A stretch of DNA of 7,740 nucleotides. It comes from a virus. Taxonomy: Duplodnaviria; Heunggongvirae; Uroviricota; Caudoviricetes. How positions within the stretch are numbered: the first letter of the stretch is position 1; every line of letters begins with the position of its first letter. The notes under the pieces were generated by a model. It did not search any database and had not been told where the DNA came from. It saw only the letters and a program-made list of their open reading frames with translations. Shown here piece after piece: positions 1 through 7,740 of the stretch. The position numbers and the translations under genes are program-made. The DNA lies in IMG/VR virus record IMGVR_UViG_2875722834_000001, positions 1 to 7,740 of that record; one strand, written 5' to 3'.

Positions 1-170
1 ACCTGCACTCCAATTATTGACCAGTTCCTCACCGCGCCTCCCTCTCCGGCGGCGCGAATGAACATCTTATTGGCTATCACATCCGACACAAATGTTGCCA
101 TCCCATTGCTTAATCGAATAAAAATCAGGCTACATGGGTGCTAAATCTTTAACGATAACGCCATTGAGGC

Positions 171-200
171 TGGTCATGGCGCTCATAAATCTGGTATACT
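171..200 (+). promoter_or_regulatory. Candidate sigma70 promoter for ssrA: -35-like TGGTCA (171-176), 18-bp spacer, -10-like TATACT (195-200)
   Basis: Hexamers read directly from the sequence. TATACT ends 14 nt upstream of the mature tmRNA 5' end at 215, consistent with a short 5' leader removed by RNase P. The -35 match is weak. No ORF of 60 aa or more lies in 1-214, so this stretch looks intergenic. Confidence 0.4.
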
Positions 201-214
201 TACCTTTACACATT

Positions 215-577
215 GGGGCTGATTCTGGATTCGACGGGATTTGCGAAACCCAAGGTGCATGCCGAGGGGCGGTTGGCCTCGTAAAAAGCCGCAAAAAATA
301 GTCGCAAACGACGAAAACTACGCTTTAGCAGCTTAATAACCTGCTTAGAGCCCTCTCTCCCTAGCCTCCGCTCTTAGGACGGGGATCAAGAGAGGTCAAA
401 CCCAAAAGAGATCGCGTGGAAGCCCTGCCTGGGGTTGAAGCGTTAAAACTTAATCAGGCTAGTTTGTTAGTGGCGTGTCCGTCCGCAGCTGGCAAGCGAA
501 TGTAAAGACTGACTAAGCATGTAGTACCGAGGATGTAGGAATTTCGGACGCGGGTTCAACTCCCGCCAGCTCCACCA
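215..577 (+). ncRNA. ssrA: tmRNA (SsrA, transfer-messenger RNA), mature 363-nt form
   Basis: Starts GGGGCTGATTCTGGATTCGACGGG and ends GGTTCAACTCCCGCCAGCTCCACCA (tRNA-like acceptor/T-arm with CCA). The internal tag reading frame at 304-336, GCA AAC GAC GAA AAC TAC GCT TTA GCA GCT TAA, encodes ANDENYALAA-stop, the E. coli/Shigella-type tag. The whole gene matches my recollection of E. coli ssrA. Confidence 0.95.
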
Positions 578-585
578 AATAAATC

Positions 586-620
586 AAGGGGTTACGTAAA
601 AGCGTAGCCCCTTTTTCTTT
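586..620 (+). terminator. Intrinsic terminator downstream of ssrA
   Basis: Left arm AAGGGGTTACG (586-596) pairs with right arm CGTAGCCCCTT (603-613), with one G-U pair, around loop TAAAAG, followed by the T-tract TTTTTCTTT to 620. Seen directly in the sequence. Confidence 0.6.
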
Positions 621-635
621 GGTAGTGGCGGCAAA

Positions 636-674
636 ATGGCGACAGACTTTTGCGTCCATCTTGCCTGTCGCCAT
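636..674. repeat. Perfect 10-bp inverted repeat ATGGCGACAG (636-645) / CTGTCGCCAT (665-674) with a 19-bp spacer; the octamer CCATCTTG is also repeated directly (656-663 and 671-678)
   Basis: Read directly from the sequence. It lies between the ssrA terminator and the RBS (AAGAGG 689-694) of the 701-1183 gene. Possible operator, recombinase or IHF arm site, or RNA hairpin. Confidence 0.5.
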
Positions 675-700
675 CTTGAAATCATGCAAAGAGGTTTCAC

Positions 701-1183
701 ATGGAAGAACTTCACTTTGTTTACATCAATGCAAATGGTCGTATCGGAGTTCACTCAATACAGAGCATCAGTTATAGCGAAAATCATATACAGGGCATTT
801 GTAAGAACACCGATCGAATAAAAACCTTCCGAAAAGACCGCATTCTTAAACAGTACGATTCACCAGAACAAGCCATTCAGGAATGCGCGTCATTCCTCCC
901 CGAAAACTACTCACACCTCACTAAGCAGTCTGGTCCGAAAAAAAATACATTCGATGTGTGTTTCACCGGATTTAAGAAAGCAGATAAAGAAAGATTGGTT
1001 GATAAGGCGAATGAACAAGGATTAACGGTAAGAACCTCTGTAACCCAAAGCCTTCAGATGCTCTGTTGCGGTTACAATGCAGGCCCATCAAAAGTATCGG
1101 CAGCCAGGATGAAAGGCACAATCATCATAGATGAGCCTGGCTTTATACATTTTCTTGAAACGGGTGAGATCCCAGATGAATAA
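701..1183 (+). CDS. Hypothetical 160-aa cargo protein: N-terminal WYL-like domain fused to a C-terminal BRCT-like domain
   Basis: Strong RBS AAGAGG 6 nt upstream of the ATG at 701. The N-terminal half contains RIKTFRKDRI, resembling the R-x-F-R-x-D-R-I hallmark at the end of WYL domains. The C-terminal half (NTFDVCFTGF ... GLTVRTSVTQSLQMLCCGYNAGPSKVSAARMKGTIIIDEPGFIHFL) resembles the BRCT fold pattern of NAD-dependent DNA ligase (LigA) C-termini. The region is visibly AT-rich compared with the adjacent phage core. Domain calls are by eye and need HMM confirmation. Confidence 0.7.
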   Translation: MEELHFVYINANGRIGVHSIQSISYSENHIQGICKNTDRIKTFRKDRILKQYDSPEQAIQECASFLPENYSHLTKQSGPKKNTFDVCFTGFKKADKERLVDKANEQGLTVRTSVTQSLQMLCCGYNAGPSKVSAARMKGTIIIDEPGFIHFLETGEIPDE

Positions 1184-1211
1184 AAACCTGCCGTAGCAGG
1201 TTCTCTTTCTC
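1176..1211. terminator. Bidirectional intrinsic terminator between the convergent 701-1183 gene and ogr
   Basis: Perfect 7-bp stem AACCTGC (1185-1191) / GCAGGTT (1196-1202) around loop CGTA. On the minus strand the stem is followed by TTTTTATT; on the plus strand by CTCTTTCTC. Confidence 0.55.
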
Positions 1212-1428
1212 AAAAATTCATATGCCCCTGACCACCTGGCAATGGATGTGGAGGAGCAGTAGCAATCAGTGCGGGTGTCACAATAAACCGGACCACTGTT
1301 TCATGGGTAACAAAAGTGCTCCCGCAGTTAATATTTTGGCACTGGCAGTAACGCTCTTTGGTGCTTTCAGTTACTTGAAAACTGCTCCTTGTGTGTGCCG
1401 CATGACCACACTTTGGACAATTCATCAT
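1210..1428 (-). CDS. ogr: Ogr-type zinc-finger late-gene transcriptional activator (P2 Ogr / 186 B / P4 Delta family)
   Basis: The ORF 1210-1473 contains MMNCPKCGHAAHTRSSFQVTESTKERYCQCQNINCGSTFVTHE..., with the C-x2-C ... C-x4-C spacing and overall resemblance to P2 Ogr (about 72 aa). The upstream 16 codons of the six-frame ORF are probably not translated, so the start is set at the internal Met at 1428; the start is uncertain by one codon (1425 or 1428). Confidence 0.85.
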   Translation of the reverse strand: MMNCPKCGHAAHTRSSFQVTESTKERYCQCQNINCGSTFVTHETVVRFIVTPALIATAPPHPLPGGQGHMNF

Positions 1429-1496
1429 ATCCAGATCCCTACCTTTGCTATCAGAATCATTGTAATGATACACAAAATATCAACATTGAGAACACT

Positions 1497-2597
1497 TTAT
1501 TCCATTTCAAGATCATCAATCTTCACTTCGAGTTCAATACTGGTCGTAAAACCATTATCCGGGCTGACGGTATGAGTCAGAGTCGTAATGGTCCATTCCG
1601 CATCATCTATCGGTTGTTTAAAGCCACTAACTTTCACTGGCATTTCCGTGTAAAGATCTGCCCGCCCTTCCGCCAGTTGTAGCGAGAATGACGCAACGCC
1701 GCGTTGCAGGCGTTCCCACTGCATTTTCGCTGCCCGTTCAGCGTTGCTCCGGTTGGCATAAGTGCGATTAAGTACCAGCACGTTTTCATCCGTACCCACC
1801 AGGTAATCGCCCTGCTTCGCTTCCGGCTCTTTCTTCTGCTTCTTAGTTCTGCGCTTACGCTTCACCGTGGTACTTTCTTTCTTCGCAGGTTCGCGGGTAT
1901 GCAACCAGCTGGCAATTACGCCCGTGTAGGCTCCGCGATCTGCCAGGGTAAATCGGTGACTGTCGCCGTCCTTGCGTGTGATAGTGATCACTGGCAGAGG
2001 TTTACCAGTGGCGCTTTTGCCCTGCCCCTGCCGGATGAATAACAGATTGCCATTTTTCACCGACGCGATGGCACCGTACTGTCGCGCCAGCCGCATCAGA
2101 AAACTGCCGTCACTCTCATTAGTCTGGTCTATATGCTCCACGGGCTTATCCGACAGGTCTTTACCCAGTGCCATCTTCAGCTTGTGCCGCGCGGCTATTT
2201 CCTTCACCACTTCCCCGACGGTGGTCTTATGCCACGATTTTTCACGGCGGGTATTCAGCGTTTCCCGAAAATCAGCACTTCGCGCCCGAATAGTCAGGCG
2301 GTCCGGTGCGCCAGTGTGTTCAATCTCGTCCACTGTGAATGCCCCTTTCGGGAAAAGCGGCTGCCCCTTCCAGCCCAGCGCCAGCGTAATAACCGCACCA
2401 CGGCGCGGCAGCACGATTTTTCCGTCAGCGTCATCCAGCTCCAGATCAAGCTGGTCCGCTTCAAAGCCCCGGTTATCCGTCAGCGTCAAACTCATCAGGC
2501 GGTTATCCAGCACAGTGGTGATATCCCTGCCCTCAATACTGATGCTGAATGCGGGAGTTTTGTTGCCTTTGTTAAGCAGTTCAGAGCTGAAATTCAC
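1497..2597 (-). CDS. D: P2 gpD-like tail protein (late control D family), 366 aa
   Basis: Size and position match the P2/186 order T-U-D-ogr. Its start overlaps the stop of the upstream U gene by 4 bp (ATGA-type coupling). GC-rich codon usage typical of the phage core. The identity rests on synteny, not on a recalled gpD sequence. Confidence 0.85.
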   Translation of the reverse strand: MNFSSELLNKGNKTPAFSISIEGRDITTVLDNRLMSLTLTDNRGFEADQLDLELDDADGKIVLPRRGAVITLALGWKGQPLFPKGAFTVDEIEHTGAPDRLTIRARSADFRETLNTRREKSWHKTTVGEVVKEIAARHKLKMALGKDLSDKPVEHIDQTNESDGSFLMRLARQYGAIASVKNGNLLFIRQGQGKSATGKPLPVITITRKDGDSHRFTLADRGAYTGVIASWLHTREPAKKESTTVKRKRRTKKQKKEPEAKQGDYLVGTDENVLVLNRTYANRSNAERAAKMQWERLQRGVASFSLQLAEGRADLYTEMPVKVSGFKQPIDDAEWTITTLTHTVSPDNGFTTSIELEVKIDDLEME

Positions 2598-3079
2598 GAC
2601 AGCAGCCCTCCCACCGTTTTACTGATATCGCTTAAGGCAGACGTTGCCGTGTCCTGCAGATTATTCAGTTGCGCACTGAGATCACCGAACATATCGGACA
2701 GGGATTCATCCACTCGTTTGAGCGACAGGGTGAACTCAATCCGGCGCGGCATACCGTCGCGGAAAAACTCCGTTTTAGTCTGATTCAGTCCCTCAATCAC
2801 ATACATGCCGTAAATCGTGCCGCTGCCTTCAATCAGGGGCCATGCTTTCCCCTGTTCTGCCATCTGCTCCAGTGCCAGCAACGACAGCCTGCCGCCTGTT
2901 ATTTCCGGCATAAGAACACCGGAAAGCGTCAGCATGTCGTTTTCCGGTCCCAGAAACTGCGTGGACGGACGTCGGTTTACCCGACTGTTTGCCGCATGTC
3001 GCCAGCTGCGTTGATACTGCAGTTCCTGATACGGAACGGTGCGCAGCATAAACACGTACAATCCCAGCACCATCATCAT
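2594..3079 (-). CDS. U: P2 gpU-like tail protein, 161 aa
   Basis: About 160 aa, located between the tape-measure gene and D, with 4-bp overlaps at both ends. The start is one of three consecutive Met codons (MMM). Confidence 0.85.
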   Translation of the reverse strand: MMMVLGLYVFMLRTVPYQELQYQRSWRHAANSRVNRRPSTQFLGPENDMLTLSGVLMPEITGGRLSLLALEQMAEQGKAWPLIEGSGTIYGMYVIEGLNQTKTEFFRDGMPRRIEFTLSLKRVDESLSDMFGDLSAQLNNLQDTATSALSDISKTVGGLLS

Positions 3080-4476
3080 GCGTCGTATCCCCCCTGATCG
3101 CTGTAGTTACTCCTGGCTTTTGCCTTCAGCCTGCGTTCACGTTCATCAAGCTGGCGTGCCACCTCCCGCGCAATATCCTGCGCACTTTGTCCTGGCTGCG
3201 TCTGAATGATGATCTGCGTCGGTGCCTCAATCCGTTGAACGAGCGGCACAGTGGCTGCGCGACTCACAATTGCTTCTCCACCTTTCGCGGGAAGTGCCAA
3301 GGGGTGCAACGGTGGAAGCTCTGCTGGCGCGGCAGCAACGCCCATCATTCCGGCAACAACGGCAGCCAGTGCAGCTGTATTTCTCCGGCTGGTCACATTT
3401 GCCGGGCCGTTAACAATTTCCGGCCCGTTTTCACCGACGATGCCAAACTGCCCGCGCGGGATATACCCGCCGCTGTCATACATCCCCGCAAAGCCATATC
3501 CCCATGATGGAAAACCACCCGATGGCATCATCACTTTACCGTCTGCATTCACCGTCGCAGGTTGCTGACGCGTCACGCTTTCCGGCAGTTTTGCCTTTGC
3601 GGCCTCTTTACTGACAATGCCGAGCTTCTCCAGCAACCAGGAAACGCCGGATTTCAGGGAGTCCAGCGGATGCATGACCATATTCAGCCCTTCCGCCAGT
3701 GCCTCCCCGAATCGCCGCCCCATTGCCGCTGCGCTCTGCAGTTCGGCAGAGGTCGACTTAACGGGCGTCAGCAGATCAGTAAACCAGCCCCACAGCGCCT
3801 GCACTTTGTCGCCAATCCACTGGAACACGGGCTTAAGCGGTTCGAACGCTGCACTGATGGGACCTGCCGCCGCTTTGAATCCTTCCACCACGCCACCGAG
3901 AAATGCGGTGATGGGTTGCCAGTATTTCCAGACAACCAGCGCCACGCCCGCCAGTGCAGTAACCACAAGACCTATCGGACTGAGCAGAGCACCTAACAGA
4001 CCAGATATGGCATACAGGGCAACGCGCAGCATCGCCAGTGGACCAGATGCCAGTACTCGCAGCACCGTGCCTGCGGCGGCCAGTCCACCGCGCAGTACCG
4101 CCAGAGGATTCATAAACATCACAGCAACAGCACGTAAACCGGATACCGCACCTGCAGCAACACGCCCGATCTCTGCGGTTGCACTCATGACGTAATGTGG
4201 CAGTTTCTCTTTTGCCACCTCATTAATCGGTACACATGGCAGGCAGTGAATCTGAGCCAGAAAACCATCTACCAGCGTTGAATCTTCAGTCAGATCGGTA
4301 AGCAACCAGATTTCTGGTGCAGTTAATAAATGAGGTTGAGCTGGGTTCAGCTTGTTCCGCAGAATCTGCACATTCATGCCTGCACGTTCTGCCAGTTGCA
4401 CCAGGTTGTGGCGCAGTGCAAAAGCCCTACAGGCTTCATCGAAATGCGGATGTTTGGAAATCTTGTAATCAAACAT
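3076..4476 (-). CDS. In-frame chimeric ORF (466 aa): CII-like regulator N-terminus (about 100-120 aa) fused to the C-terminal part of a tail tape-measure protein (gpT-like); probable deletion remnant
   Basis: The N-terminus [45 protein letters not shown]...[25 protein letters not shown] matches what I recall of phage 186 CII. The rest is Ala/Gly/Val-rich with hydrophobic segments typical of tape-measure proteins and sits directly upstream of U and D. Good SD (AAGGGGGG) before the ATG at 4476. A full gpT in P2 is about 800 aa. Confidence 0.75.
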
Positions 4477-4509
4477 GGTGCCCCCCTTAGAAAGTTCCCA
4501 TAATTGAAC

Positions 4510-4752
4510 TTACTTACCAACAATGACTCGGAAGTTGGAATGACCGAGGGATTCACGGACCTGATCGGTTTTGTACATCAGATAACGCAGGCTTACGCGA
4601 CCTTTGTTTTTTTCTTTCTTGACCATGTACTTAGCAAGTTGACCATGGTGAATTTTTTGGTAAACAGAGCCGCGGGAAATACCCTCCCACTCTGCGAACT
4701 CTGCAGGCGTAGCCATCTCTTTTGGTACACGAATTGAAATATCAGTACTCAT
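4510..4752 (-). CDS. Small HTH DNA-binding protein in the Apl/Cox position (putative excisionase and switch regulator), 80 aa
   Basis: It is the first gene of the operon leading into the CII-like gene, divergent from the cI-int operon, as for 186 apl or P2 cox. The segment TPAEFAEWEGISRGSVYQKI looks like an excisionase-type helix-turn-helix. Assignment is mainly by synteny. Confidence 0.65.
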   Translation of the reverse strand: MSTDISIRVPKEMATPAEFAEWEGISRGSVYQKIHHGQLAKYMVKKEKNKGRVSLRYLMYKTDQVRESLGHSNFRVIVGK

Positions 4753-4873
4753 AGTGCAGTATCTCTTACTTTGTGTGCGTGTTAGTTCGTTTTAGCCCGT
4801 CTCTTAAACTCTCACATCAAGAGACATGAAGACATTACGATCTTGATTCAAGATTGTCAAATGGAGATTACCA
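4753..4873. promoter_or_regulatory. Lysis-lysogeny switch region between the apl-like gene and cI, with candidate promoters and operators
   Basis: On the minus strand there is a consensus -35 TTGACA (plus coordinates 4855-4860), a 17-bp spacer holding the perfect 15-bp palindrome ATCTTGATTCAAGAT (4840-4854), and a -10-like TAATGT (4832-4837). A 7-bp inverted repeat GTCTCTT (4799-4805) / AAGAGAC (4819-4825) and several TCTCTTA-like repeats (4761-4810) are also present. The cI RBS is GGAG at 4863-4866. The plus-strand cI promoter may lie within the start of the apl-like gene (TTGAAA at 4734-4739), as in the face-to-face promoters of 186 and P2. Confidence 0.55.
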
Positions 4874-5506
4874 ATGTTAAACATCAGAATGGGTTCCGAT
4901 ACGGGAGGTAAGGCAGCTATTGAAAGGCTGCTTGAGGCTTATGGATTCACAACTAAGCAGGCATTAAGCGAGCACCTGAATGTCTCAAAAAGCACTATGG
5001 CAAACAGAGTGTTACGTGACAGCTTTCCTGCTGACTGGATAATTCAGTGCGCACTAGAAACCGGTGTTTCGTTGCTTTGGTTAGCTACAGGACAGGGAAG
5101 CATGAAAGGAGGAGCTGAGCCTGAGAAAAGTTCTCATAATGAGAACAAACAAGCAATTAAACCGTTATCCAAACTCATAACTCCAGCTATTCCTAAAGGA
5201 ACCCTGGAGAATGGACAACTCAGTATTGATGAAGAGATTTTCCTAGACCACAGCATATTACCTGCAGATTATGAAGAATCGATGTTCTTAGAAACCCCTA
5301 CTGATTGTTATCTCATCGATAAATCAATTAAACAGGTCAGCAATGGATTCTGGCTTATCAATATTGATGGAATGATTATTGTTGCAAAAATCATGCGGAT
5401 TCCCGGCAATAAGATTGTAGTAAATCAAGATGAAGCGTCTTTCGAGTGCTCTACTGATGATGTGGAAGTTATTGGGCGTGCAGTCAAAGTAATAAAGAGT
5501 ATCTAA
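4874..5506 (+). CDS. cI: Phage 186 CI-like immunity repressor, 210 aa
   Basis: The motifs LEAYGF, CALETGVSLLWLATGQG, GFWLINIDG, RIPG, FEC and IGRAVKV align with what I recall of 186 CI (CEAYGF, CALETGANLQWLLTGEG, GLWLVDIEG, KLPG, FEC, LGRVVGV). It lies immediately upstream of int on the same strand, as in 186. Confidence 0.85.
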   Translation: MLNIRMGSDTGGKAAIERLLEAYGFTTKQALSEHLNVSKSTMANRVLRDSFPADWIIQCALETGVSLLWLATGQGSMKGGAEPEKSSHNENKQAIKPLSKLITPAIPKGTLENGQLSIDEEIFLDHSILPADYEESMFLETPTDCYLIDKSIKQVSNGFWLINIDGMIIVAKIMRIPGNKIVVNQDEASFECSTDDVEVIGRAVKVIKSI

Positions 5507-5508
5507 AC

Positions 5509-6525
5509 ATGACTGTCAGAAAACAGCCAAACGGTAAATGGTTGTGCGAGTGCTATCCCAATGGACGCAATGGCAAGCGCGTGCGTAAGCAATTTGCTAC
5601 GAAAGGCGAAGCCATTGCTTTTGAAAGCTTCACAATGGAAGAAGTGAACAAAAAACCATGGCTGGGGGAAAAGGAAGATCGGCGACACCTATCAGAATTA
5701 ATTGAGCAGTGGTATTCCCTGTATGGTCAAACACTCGCAGACCCCAAGCGCCTCATGGCGAAACTTAGAATTATCTGTAATGGTCTAGGCGATCCCATCG
5801 CCTCAGAACTAACAGCCGGTGACTTTACGAAATACCGCGAAGCACGGTTAAAAGGTGAAGTACGAAATGAAGATGGCACGCTTATGTCGCCCGTTAAGCC
5901 CCGCACGGTAAACCTTGAACAGCGCAATCTATCATCGGTGTTCGGTACATTAAAAAAACTAGGACACTGGTCAGCACCAAACCCGCTGGCAGGACTTCCG
6001 ACCTTCAAAATTACCGAAGGTGAGCTGGCTTTTCTTTCCGTGGACGAAATCAAGCGCCTGTTGGCTGCATGTGCTGAATCTCAAAGCCCGAGCCTACTAA
6101 TGATTGCAAAAATATGCTTAGCTACCGGCGCACGGTGGAGTGAAGCCGAAAACCTTCAGGGCCACCAAATATCGAAATACCGAATTACTTATACAAAGAC
6201 AAAGGGCAAGAAAAACAGAACAGTACCAATATCTCAAGATCTGTATCACGAACTCCCCAAAAACAGAGGGAAGTTATTCACGCCATGCAGAAAATCTTTT
6301 GAGCGTGCAGTAAAAAGAGCAGGTATTGACTTGCCAGAGGGCCAGTGCACGCATGTATTGCGCCATACATTCGCTAGTCACTTTATGATGAATGGCGGAA
6401 ATATTCTTGTATTGAGAGATATTTTAGGGCACTCAGATATAAAAATGACAATGGTCTATGCCCATTTCGCACCAGAACATCTTGAAGATGCTGTTACTAA
6501 AAACCCCTTATTTAACTTAAAGTGA
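5509..6525 (+). CDS. int: Tyrosine site-specific integrase, P2/186 family, 338 aa
   Basis: The C-terminal catalytic region HVLRHTFASHFMMNGGNILVLRDILGHSDIKMTMVYAHF carries the R-H-x-x-R ... Y signature of tyrosine recombinases; an upstream conserved Arg lies in LATGARWSEA. It starts 2 nt after the cI stop, suggesting translational coupling. Confidence 0.95.
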   Translation: MTVRKQPNGKWLCECYPNGRNGKRVRKQFATKGEAIAFESFTMEEVNKKPWLGEKEDRRHLSELIEQWYSLYGQTLADPKRLMAKLRIICNGLGDPIASELTAGDFTKYREARLKGEVRNEDGTLMSPVKPRTVNLEQRNLSSVFGTLKKLGHWSAPNPLAGLPTFKITEGELAFLSVDEIKRLLAACAESQSPSLLMIAKICLATGARWSEAENLQGHQISKYRITYTKTKGKKNRTVPISQDLYHELPKNRGKLFTPCRKSFERAVKRAGIDLPEGQCTHVLRHTFASHFMMNGGNILVLRDILGHSDIKMTMVYAHFAPEHLEDAVTKNPLFNLK

Positions 6526-6534
6526 TAAATAAAA

Positions 6535-7740
6535 ATGCATATTCAACAAGAACTCGATGAAGAACTTAATAATCTTTTTGACACTATTAGAAAAAAATCA
6601 AGTATTCGACCACCAATTGAGATTGAAAAAAACCTTACTTTGATAGATGACTTCGCTCTAAAATGCAGTAAATTCCGGGGTTGTTTAGTAGATTACATCC
6701 AGGAAAATGATAACAGGTTAAGTTTACGCTTGCGCAATAGACTTAGAGCTGTAGATATCATGCAGAAAGAAATCGTCTCGTGTTTAGAGTGTTTTTTATC
6801 AGGGGATATTAAGTCGGCATATGACTCATTTGAAAGTATGCTAGAGCCACGAACTATATCTCGTCATATTGAAAATATATGCATACCTCTTTCTGACTTA
6901 TGTAATGAAGATAAACCATTATTCCGCGTTAGAAAATCTGATACGCCACTTACATCAAGAAGAGATATGTTTCATATTCCGTTCAGTCAGCGTCACTTTG
7001 TTAGAGCACAGAGATTTTCAGTTGCTGGTCTACCCTGTTTATATTTAGGAACATCTCTTTATATATGCTGGAGAGAAATGGATAAGCCAGATTTTGATAA
7101 GCTATATATATCTGCCTACAAGATCGATAAAAATAATGACTCAAAGGTACTAAATATAGGACCTGATTTTTTATATAAACAGAGATCTATATTAGAGTCA
7201 AAAAGAAAGAACAAATATGATTTCAATACCAAACTCTCATATTTAGCACTTTGGCCTTTGATAATTGCATGCAATTATTTAAAAAAATATGACAATGCTT
7301 CCTTTGTACAAGAATATATTATCCCCAATCTTTTGATGCAATGGATCAGTCGGAACAGCAATGAGAATGTTGTTGGTATAGCCTACCGCTCAACAAAATT
7401 ACCTGCTAATGCCTTAGGTAGCAGAGGAATAAATGTGGTACTTCCTCCAAAAGTGCGTTACGAGGAGATGGCCAATAATGAATTTTGTCCAAATCTAGCG
7501 AAAATTTTCAAATTCACATTGCCTGTATCTTGGCAGGTCCTAAAAACAGTTGAGTACGTGCCTGAATCAGTTGCACAATCCGATCGAGAGAATCTCAGCA
7601 GAAGGCTACGAAGAAGAAAAAATCGTGAGCTAACAGGAAGCATAGATGATGAAATTTTGAACATCTATAATTTAACTGACTTTTATAAACTCGAAACTTG
7701 TATGGATGAAATTCAAGTATATGCCCATATTAAACCATGA
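6535..7740 (+). CDS. Hypothetical 401-aa cargo protein with a central RES-domain signature (putative NAD+-targeting toxin or defence effector)
   Basis: RFSVAGLPCLYLGTSLYICWRE gives Arg160-x9-Tyr170-x10-Glu181, and GIAYRSTKLPANALGSRGINVVL gives Ser286, matching the conserved Arg/Glu/Ser and their spacing in RES-domain toxins. There are long N- and C-terminal extensions, including the basic stretch RRLRRRKNR. The region is very AT-rich. The ATG is 9 nt after the int stop with no recognisable SD. The stop codon is at the last three bases of the window. Confidence 0.75.
   Translation: MHIQQELDEELNNLFDTIRKKSSIRPPIEIEKNLTLIDDFALKCSKFRGCLVDYIQENDNRLSLRLRNRLRAVDIMQKEIVSCLECFLSGDIKSAYDSFESMLEPRTISRHIENICIPLSDLCNEDKPLFRVRKSDTPLTSRRDMFHIPFSQRHFVRAQRFSVAGLPCLYLGTSLYICWREMDKPDFDKLYISAYKIDKNNDSKVLNIGPDFLYKQRSILESKRKNKYDFNTKLSYLALWPLIIACNYLKKYDNASFVQEYIIPNLLMQWISRNSNENVVGIAYRSTKLPANALGSRGINVVLPPKVRYEEMANNEFCPNLAKIFKFTLPVSWQVLKTVEYVPESVAQSDRENLSRRLRRRKNRELTGSIDDEILNIYNLTDFYKLETCMDEIQVYAHIKP

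Follow-up and report, generated by a model that had tools for sequence, protein, structure and literature searches.

A defective Cartapus-type prophage at ssrA of Escherichia coli HH107 and a recurrent deletion breakpoint in cII

How does a prophage come to lose most of its virion genes, keep its repressor and integrase, and carry an accessory gene near each of its ends? The locus that raises this question is a 7,740-nucleotide (nt) stretch of Caudoviricetes DNA (IMG/VR record IMGVR_UViG_2875722834_000001, positions 1 to 7,740; hereafter the window), which belongs to the genome of Escherichia coli HH107 (NZ_CP116405.1) and runs from smpB–ssrA towards ypjA. An original prediction, made from the sequence alone, had read it as a gutted P2/186-like prophage with cargo at both ends that persists as a minimal island, possibly owing to beneficial cargo. 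Here we find that positions 533–7740, together with 164 nt past the end of the window, are a defective prophage and an ordinary wreck of a known phage type. Very probably it arose by a recent internal deletion from a P2/186-like phage of the Cartapus type (Peduoviridae, Elveevirus) that integrates at ssrA. The cII end of the deletion does not lie at random but at a breakpoint that recurs, having been used independently in at least 12 remnants, and this is the one observation that may be new. In other respects, the HH107 element is one more decayed P2-like prophage, whose accessory genes and their location flanking the attachment (att) site are already on record in Cartapus and in two hotspot surveys.

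Probable origin of the element from an intact phage type

The phage type is represented by three intact phages or prophages of equal gene order, Cartapus (NC_070909; prophage 4 of the AIEC strain LF82), MSB1_4I and UTME-8, the latter two of which sit at ssrA. Cartapus and UTME-8 carry both accessory genes of the window, and MSB1_4I has another gene between int and att. Cartapus, a complete phage of 33.4 kb, shares with the window element the gene order, the segment from the 5′ part of cII through apl, cI and int to a RES-like accessory gene, and the ssrA attachment sequence, and differs from it by the roughly 26 kb that the element is without. By blastn, window positions 4142–7740 (the right arm) match Cartapus 27181–23583 at 100.000% over 3,599 nt, with 0 mismatches, and positions 533–4145 match Cartapus 23463–19851 at 96.3% identity. 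As these two alignments overlap by 4 nt, GATA, at 4142–4145, one deletion of roughly 26 kb joined T to cII at a microhomology (CCGGATA/ATCC on the T side and CCAGATA/CCGC on the cII side, with the slash at the junction). The deleted segment ran from mid-cII downstream to mid-T, equivalent to Cartapus 27182–33368 plus 1–19850, and with it went fil, the replication gene A, a DinI/Tum-like SOS gene, cos, the genes for the head and for lysis, and most of those for the tail. The event was a single illegitimate recombination at the 4-bp GATA, which joined mid-T to codon 113 of cII.

What is left keeps the Peduoviridae/Elveevirus synteny, T-U-D-ogr / att / int-cI-apl-cII, with family-specific domains. 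The prediction of a gutted P2/186-like prophage is borne out by the Pfam and PHROG modules and by the collinearity with Cartapus at 96–100% nucleotide identity, and the survivors it had listed (repressor, switch, Apl/Cox-like gene, integrase, Ogr and two accessory genes) are present according to Pfam, PHROG and the open reading frames (ORFs). Its statement that the virion genes are lost holds for most of them, but D and U are intact and one third of T remains, as do two thirds of cII. Not retained are complete modules for replication (A, ori), cos/terminase, head, lysis and tail, and the element is not a functional phage.

The element lies between direct repeats of the attachment core. The sequence repeated is the 3′ end of ssrA, ATGTAGGAATTTCGGACGCGGGTTCAACTCCCGCCAGC followed by [T]CCACCA, with 38 nt exact and 45 of 46 positions identical with one indel. 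A second copy, for which the original prediction had proposed looking to the right of the window, was found there and defines attR; the two copies delimit the ends and give an element of 7.33 kb. The attR of HH107 is one T shorter than its attL (…GCCAGC-CCACCA compared to …GCCAGCTCCACCA), and in the intact UTME-8 prophage attR is 46/46 identical.

A small element with an integrase, a repressor, accessory genes near att and a homologue of P2 ogr, as in P4 delta, might also be a P4-like satellite or a phage-inducible chromosomal island that uses a P2-like helper, and not phage debris. However, every segment is collinear with a complete phage genome at 96–100% identity, two genes are visibly truncated and fused, and neither cos nor the satellite core genes psu, sid, delta and alpha primase are among the window ORFs or in the RefSeq annotation. 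On these grounds we reject a satellite identity, whose probability we consider negligible.

The two arms do not have the same closest relative. The left arm (window 1–4145) is 99.8% identical to MSB1_4I, to which the right arm is only 84–91% identical, and UTME-8 matches the right arm at 99.9% and the left at 98.4%. With different closest relatives (99.8% MSB1_4I compared to 100% Cartapus), either the parent was a mosaic or the deletion spanned two tandem, different prophages, one with an MSB1_4I-like left arm and one with a Cartapus-like right arm. Tandem lysogens are expected to hold an attP-type junction (int–cargo–attP–BRCT–ogr) inside the chromosome, and strain 503440 has one. Still, P2-like phages are highly mosaic, UTME-8 combines both arms, at the identities given, in one intact prophage, and there is no direct evidence of tandem lysogens in the HH107 lineage, so we hold a deletion across two prophages to be unlikely. 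Weighing against our main reading is that we found no intact prophage in which an MSB1_4I-like left arm is combined with a right arm identical to Cartapus; the parent is for this reason one that we infer, either a mosaic or a pair of tandem lysogens.

In strain 503440 (NZ_CP025881.1; locus L005, positions 3866–6921), the order is int, a gene for 309 amino acids (aa) in the slot between int and att, the att region, BRCT and ogr pseudogenes, both frameshifted, and then D-U-T, an arrangement that fits tandem lysogens or a permuted insertion.

Among 5,426 complete E. coli genomes, only HH107 holds at least 80% of the window in one place, and only HH107 contains the 80-mer that spans the T/cII junction. 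As junction and arrangement are unique and the right arm has no mismatch to Cartapus, the deletion looks recent. According to a section heading in PMC9928086, five LF82 prophages, including Cartapus, are spontaneously induced. Since cI, apl, int and the switch are identical in nucleotide sequence to those of an active phage, CI should still repress pR and give homoimmunity, and Int, Apl, attL and attR could in principle still excise the remnant. With the antirepressor region, the replication functions and cos gone, it would be neither replicated nor packaged, and should stay locked in place with no means of spreading by itself.

A recurrent breakpoint in cII

Twelve distinct junctions in P2/186-like remnants end at one nucleotide of cII, …TA/CCGCACCTGCAGC (GATA/CCGCACC). 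The site in full is CCAGATA/CCGCACCTGCAGC, at window 4139–4158 in the minus-strand gene, and the stretch CCAGATACCGCACC belongs to it. Its junction partners are A (two sites), portal (two), the terminase region (three), tail-X/holin, tail fibre, T (two) and D, and the remnants that share it, E. coli B/BL21 included, differ in their att sites and integrases. Five independent events at this site (HH107, CUPF12/PK5, E308/PSS-10, the BL21 lineage and A21005-2) come from truncated cII genes found without anchoring, as do two truncations elsewhere (FG31-1 and ETEC4070). Pattern scans anchored on the retained side gave seven further partners (three in the terminase region, a second portal site, tail-X/holin, tail fibre and D); such scans detect only junctions within 12 nt of the site, and all 12 still fall on one position there. 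A pattern scan of genome contigs returned two matches, both in intact cII. Roughly 59 of the 1,291 E. coli genomes with this cII segment hold only part of it.

All of these deletions run downstream of pR from the cII site, stay within the prophage, span 2.3 to ~28 kb and leave the truncated cII (cII′), apl, cI, int and the att-proximal cargo. CUPF12/PK5 shares the att site of HH107, has its breakpoint in T 646 nt away and is only 89.6% identical in the right arm. E308, whose int and cI are different, occupies the ybjL/rcdA att site, and its cII′ is joined to the portal gene. In BL21/C41(DE3) cII′ is joined to gene A, and in A21005-2 to another position in A. The defective P2-like prophage of BL21/C41 resembles that of HH107 in its cII′-apl-like-cI-int block, in having att-proximal small ORFs and in the identical end nucleotide of cII′; it differs in its att site (ybjL/rcdA), in int and cI, and in a deletion of only ~3.4 kb (cII to A) that kept most virion genes and a retron.

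The partner sites resemble the cII site at short range. Where the intact partner sequence was recovered, it shares 2–6 nt of exact microhomology with the cII site; TA is present in six of seven such cases, and the T-b partner shares AT. Across the five positions upstream of TA, partners differ from CCAGATA by a mean of 2.17 mismatches, whereas 3.62 would be expected of TA-ending 7-mers drawn at random from the phage; in 100,000 resamplings the observed mean was never reached.

One end is thus fixed, the partner varies and is chosen by short imperfect homology, and the crossover lies at the 3′ edge of that homology, which fits a fixed DNA end, nick, break or arrested 3′ end at the cII site that would be resolved by microhomology-mediated joining or template switching. 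The cII site may be a hotspot of site-specific deletion and as such dictate the course of decay in P2/186-like prophages; we hold this reading tentatively and put it slightly short of an even chance. A recurrent breakpoint, combined with selection against lytic genes and for the repressor, would suffice for the retained cII′-apl-cI-int-cargo block. Should the hotspot be mechanistic, it would account for the regular retention of repressor, integrase and att-proximal cargo, and loss of lytic genes, in P2-like remnants, that of the laboratory strain BL21 among them, and would offer a tractable system for prophage domestication; if real, it would be an undescribed ‘self-disarming’ breakpoint that produces islands of immunity plus cargo. 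We looked in the literature for a deletion hotspot in cII or in prophages and found nothing relevant.

Several candidate causes were considered. A hairpin or cruciform at the site was rejected, as DNA folding z-scores of +0.3 and +0.9 are no better than those of shuffles. As far as it is testable, we also reject a pseudo-origin for the A nickase, having found no related motif in gene A or elsewhere in Cartapus, and a pseudo-site for a phage DNA invertase was rejected because the true crossover repeats (…ACCTTGGTTTGGGAGAAG…) are unrelated to the cII site. For Chi, EcoKI and common type IIS sites, inspection was by eye only and showed nothing convincing. Cleavage by a type IA topoisomerase, for which we assume a preference for C at −4, agrees by eye with most junctions; the rule was applied post hoc and we make no claim from it.

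In L069 and L072, two intact-looking IMG/VR relatives, a nucleotide similarity of roughly 70% to Cartapus cII stops 6 nt from the breakpoint. This may be a mosaic boundary in phage evolution and could equally be plain divergence.

Accessory genes on either side of the attachment site

The proteins encoded by the two accessory genes of the window, a 160-aa BRCT protein (orf160) on the ogr side and a 401-aa RES-like protein (orf401) on the int side, are 98.8% and 100% identical to Cartapus gp32 and gp33, which in the phage are neighbours that flank a 287-bp attP interval between ogr and int. Both genes were already present in the intact parent, one on either side of attP, with integration splitting the region onto the two ends of the prophage. 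Cargo at both ends hence needs no special explanation, as the two ends are a single attP-flanking accessory region in the phage.

To survey the int–att slot, we fetched 80 IMG/VR loci whose integrase is at least 90% identical; with the att core as its boundary, the slot was delimited in 58 of these and in four E. coli loci, the latter roughly 84–100% identical at the DNA level. Among these 62 loci, slot length ranges from 130 nt, when empty, to 2,788 nt. The slot holds the RES-like family in 19 loci, is empty in 15, and otherwise carries a ~350-aa membrane protein family (c1, 15 loci), a ~510-aa family (c2, eight loci), a ~220-aa membrane protein family (c3, three loci) or, in one locus each, a PADLOC dCTP-deaminase defence gene, a dCTP-deaminase-like gene paired with ThyX, and an insertion-sequence-like gene with a gene of the ~350-aa family. 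The PADLOC gene, on the opposite strand in L014, encodes 585 aa and matches the dCTP-deaminase model with an E value of 2 × 10−146. The pair, in L033, consists of a dCTP-deaminase/dUTPase-like gene whose product is membrane-anchored and, after it, a gene for a ThyX thymidylate synthase. Slot cargo is interchangeable, mostly single-gene and AT-rich, and with at least five alternative gene families plus an empty state between conserved flanks, the int–att interval is a true cassette slot.

The prediction that this interval is a cargo site additional to the known hotspots therefore holds as far as a real, variable slot is concerned but not in its novelty. Classic P2 hotspots (gpA–gpQ with old/tin, and Z/fun in the tail genes) lie within the part deleted in HH107. 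PMC13586616 states a defence hotspot of P2-like phages in the interval that separates integrase from att site, and the iLund4u preprint gives a third hotspot between a tail protein and CI, such that the slot has already been described (NAR 2026; iLund4u preprint 2024). Rousset et al. 2022 report the gpA–gpQ hotspot plus a cI–int hotspot in K139-like phages. The ogr–att side is not listed separately in these hotspot papers on P2-like phages, and in HH107 it holds a conserved gene and no cassettes. Variable genes also occur between cI and int, for example for a DUF4041 protein, in P2-like remnants at the ybjL/rcdA att site (L087 of E308, 7310–8986; L089, 6623–7567; L088, 8302–8493), which is the hotspot position of K139-like Vibrio phages, and these remnants have small ORFs between int and att.

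On the ogr side, the prediction of a cassette fails. The BRCT gene is found at 95% identity or more in 176 of the 5,426 genomes, always beside ogr, and stands there in all relatives inspected, the position being simply empty in the E308 lineage. The same inter-module site, where D adjoins the lysogeny module, is taken by homologues of 34–73% identity in P2-like phages of Yersinia (MLG42), of Mannheimia (PHL101, in which the gene lies directly downstream of cI) and of Burkholderia. According to PMC9928086, the ‘putative exonuclease protein’ of Cartapus in LF82, which by its product name is gp32, is transcribed 15-fold over the prophage background. The BRCT gene is a conserved, lysogen-expressed gene of the phage lineage and not a cassette.

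The RES-like gene is rarer, in 11 of the 5,426 genomes. LF82, tcmA_3 and UTME-8 carry it in full-length prophages, with RES-like and BRCT genes ~32 kb apart in LF82 and tcmA_3, and the compact arrangement of the window occurs only in HH107. Conservation as core genes of intact phages of the family, which the original prediction had named as evidence against itself, thus applies to the BRCT gene and by half to the RES-like gene.

Could the remnant nevertheless be a selected minimal island, in which int, apl and cI were kept for persistence or mobility and the cargo benefits the host? Int, Apl, CI and both att sites are intact, the same block is retained in CUPF12/PK5, FG31-1, E308, BL21 and A21005, and the slot cargo is defence-like, with a known dCTP-deaminase system in one relative. 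Yet the junction occurs in HH107 alone, and the right arm does not differ from that of an active phage, which leaves no time for visible selection; the same cargo sits, where checked, in the full-length prophages of LF82, tcmA_3 and UTME-8, and other remnants have different, truncated or no slot cargo. Replication and packaging functions, cos among them, are missing, and a mutational hotspot accounts for the recurrent architecture with no benefit from cargo. We consider such an island quite improbable, and persistence owing to beneficial cargo is not supported, given the presence of both genes in intact, active phages (Cartapus, UTME-8), the unique junction and the 0 mismatches in the right arm.

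The orf401 protein is a full-length member of phrog_7835, a family of ~400-aa proteins that is widespread in Enterobacterales prophages and has a 30%-identical homologue in SPbeta (YopC). An AlphaFold2 model (mean predicted local distance difference test of 77, predicted template modelling score of 0.81) has an N-terminal helical domain (residues 1–115) and an alpha/beta domain whose predicted fold is RES/ADP-ribosyltransferase-like, the likeness being remote. Pfam RES (PF08808) is the commonest sub-threshold match in the family, in 22 of 36 members, the best with an E value of 0.011, and invariant residues include R131, R133, a YLGTS motif and E181. We give about even chances to orf401 being an NAD+-targeting RES-type abortive-infection or toxin effector that would be self-inhibited by its N-terminal domain. 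Several results weigh against this assignment: the match of orf401 itself to Pfam RES reaches 11.9 bits and is below the 23.2-bit cut-off; a profile search of PDB sequences with the family gave 0 matches at E ≤ 1; no Pfam, NCBIfam or PADLOC family is assigned to orf401; and, of the two Cartapus morons that PMC9928086 reports for LF82, neither is recognizable from its name as the RES-like gene. Known RES toxins (Xre-RES, MbcTA, ParST and NatRT) have ~150–250 aa compared to 401 and pair with a separate antitoxin, whereas orf401 has the 115-residue helical domain, and their sequence similarity to it is under every curated threshold. No Xre-type antitoxin partner lies next to orf401, as int precedes it and attR follows with no partner ORF. 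The gene begins 10 nt after int with no terminator between, making read-through from the cI–int transcript plausible, and is probably co-transcribed with cI–int. A literature search for single-gene RES defence found nothing specific.

Homologues of orf401, 100% and 47% identical, stand at the far left end of the records of Salmonella RE-2010 (ELPhiS) and SopEPhi (Fels-2 group), full-length phages of different hosts, which, judged from record position alone, is the placement expected for the int/att end. SopEPhi reportedly integrates at ssrA.

In orf160, the C-terminal part has a BRCT fold, and the N-terminal half, with a near-invariant T42-F43-R44-x-D46-R47 and a five-strand beta-barrel, resembles WYL by our reading; one homologue carries WYL PF13280, and the window protein itself has no direct match. 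PADLOC gives only a weak match to the BRCT region of PDC-S48 (E value 2 × 10−7), and NCBIfam returns, for the two accessory proteins, only sub-cut-off matches to ligase and exonuclease BRCT. The orf160 protein could plausibly be a ligand- or DNA-end-sensing adaptor that acts in the lysogen. Upstream of its gene, a simple scan for promoters gave no sigma-70 consensus, which is not informative either way, and a literature search for a WYL-BRCT anti-phage protein found nothing specific.

Features of the window

The coordinates of the retained genes and sites are collected in Table 1. The 401-aa gene is complete, as the end of the window coincides with its stop codon. T′ and cII′ are fused in frame into a chimeric ORF of 466 aa (3076–4476, minus strand), with CII residues 1–113 at the N terminus and the last 353 residues of T at the C terminus; lying downstream of apl, it would be expected to be expressed only if pR is derepressed.

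Table 1 Positions of genes and sites in the HH107 window, with the attR beyond it and the cII junctions of other loci.
Feature	Position	Strand	Basis or remark
ssrA (transfer-messenger RNA), tag ANDENYALAA; 3′ end is the integration target	215..577	+	ARAGORN; RefSeq annotation of HH107
attL core, left copy of 45-nt direct repeat	533..577		Repeat search, 38/38 exact
Intrinsic terminator, phage-borne, now terminates ssrA	586..613	+	12-bp stem then T-run; inside segment shared with Cartapus (533–4145)
160-aa accessory gene (orf160), ogr–att position	701..1183	+	N-terminal small beta-barrel (WYL-like TFRKDRI motif) and C-terminal BRCT domain
ogr, late-gene activator	1210..1428	-	Pfam Ogr_Delta, E value 1.5 × 10−20; RefSeq coding sequence
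Tail gene D, intact	1497..2597	-	Pfam Phage_GPD; protein accession shared with intact MSB1_4I prophage
Tail gene U, intact	2594..3079	-	Pfam Phage_P2_GpU, E value 3 × 10−44
Tape-measure gene T, 3′ remnant (C-terminal 353 codons)	3076..4145	-	RefSeq pseudogene; collinear with Cartapus down to 19851
Deletion junction T/cII, GATA microhomology	4142..4145		blastn against Cartapus, MSB1_4I and UTME-8
cII′ (codons 1–113)	4142..4476	-	Pfam Phage_CP76 on residues 10–111; translation compared with Cartapus CII
apl, Cox/Apl-type excisionase and lytic-side repressor	4510..4752	-	phrog_6912, phrog_575; 100% nucleotide identity to Cartapus gp36
Lysis–lysogeny switch region	4753..4873		pR-like promoter reading towards apl
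cI immunity repressor, intact	4874..5506	+	Pfam Phage_CI_repr and Phage_CI_C; identical to Cartapus
Tyrosine integrase, ssrA-specific, intact	5509..6525	+	Pfam Int_N and Phage_integrase; identical to Cartapus gp34
401-aa accessory gene (orf401), int–att slot	6535..7740	+	N-terminal helical domain and remote RES-like (ADP-ribosyltransferase-fold) domain
attR, right repeat copy	7860–7904 in extended window coordinates (L001 19860–19904)		120 nt beyond window, just before ypjA
cII junctions in other loci	L004 ~4998–5002; L087 ~6009–6014; L088 ~7005–7008; L089 ~5001–5004; L093, L098, L175, L214–L220		

The hexamers of the pR-like promoter span 4880–4853 on the minus strand (TTAACA-16-GACAAT; a consensus match only, from the promoter scan), and the arrangement of the switch is one that we presume to be 186-like from established knowledge of phage 186. 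Guanine–cytosine (GC) content is 34.6% in the 401-aa gene, 41.6% in the 160-aa gene, 40.9% in cI, 44.4% in apl and 45.3% in int, with cI, apl, ogr and int together at 41–45% and the tail genes at 54–59%. The description of both accessory genes as AT-rich is therefore right for the 401-aa gene, but the 160-aa gene is like its neighbours of the lysogeny module.

As the terminator at 586–613 falls within the Cartapus-homologous segment, the terminator of ssrA is supplied by the phage; each ssrA-integrating phage therefore swaps both the 3′ end and the terminator of the transfer-messenger RNA gene.

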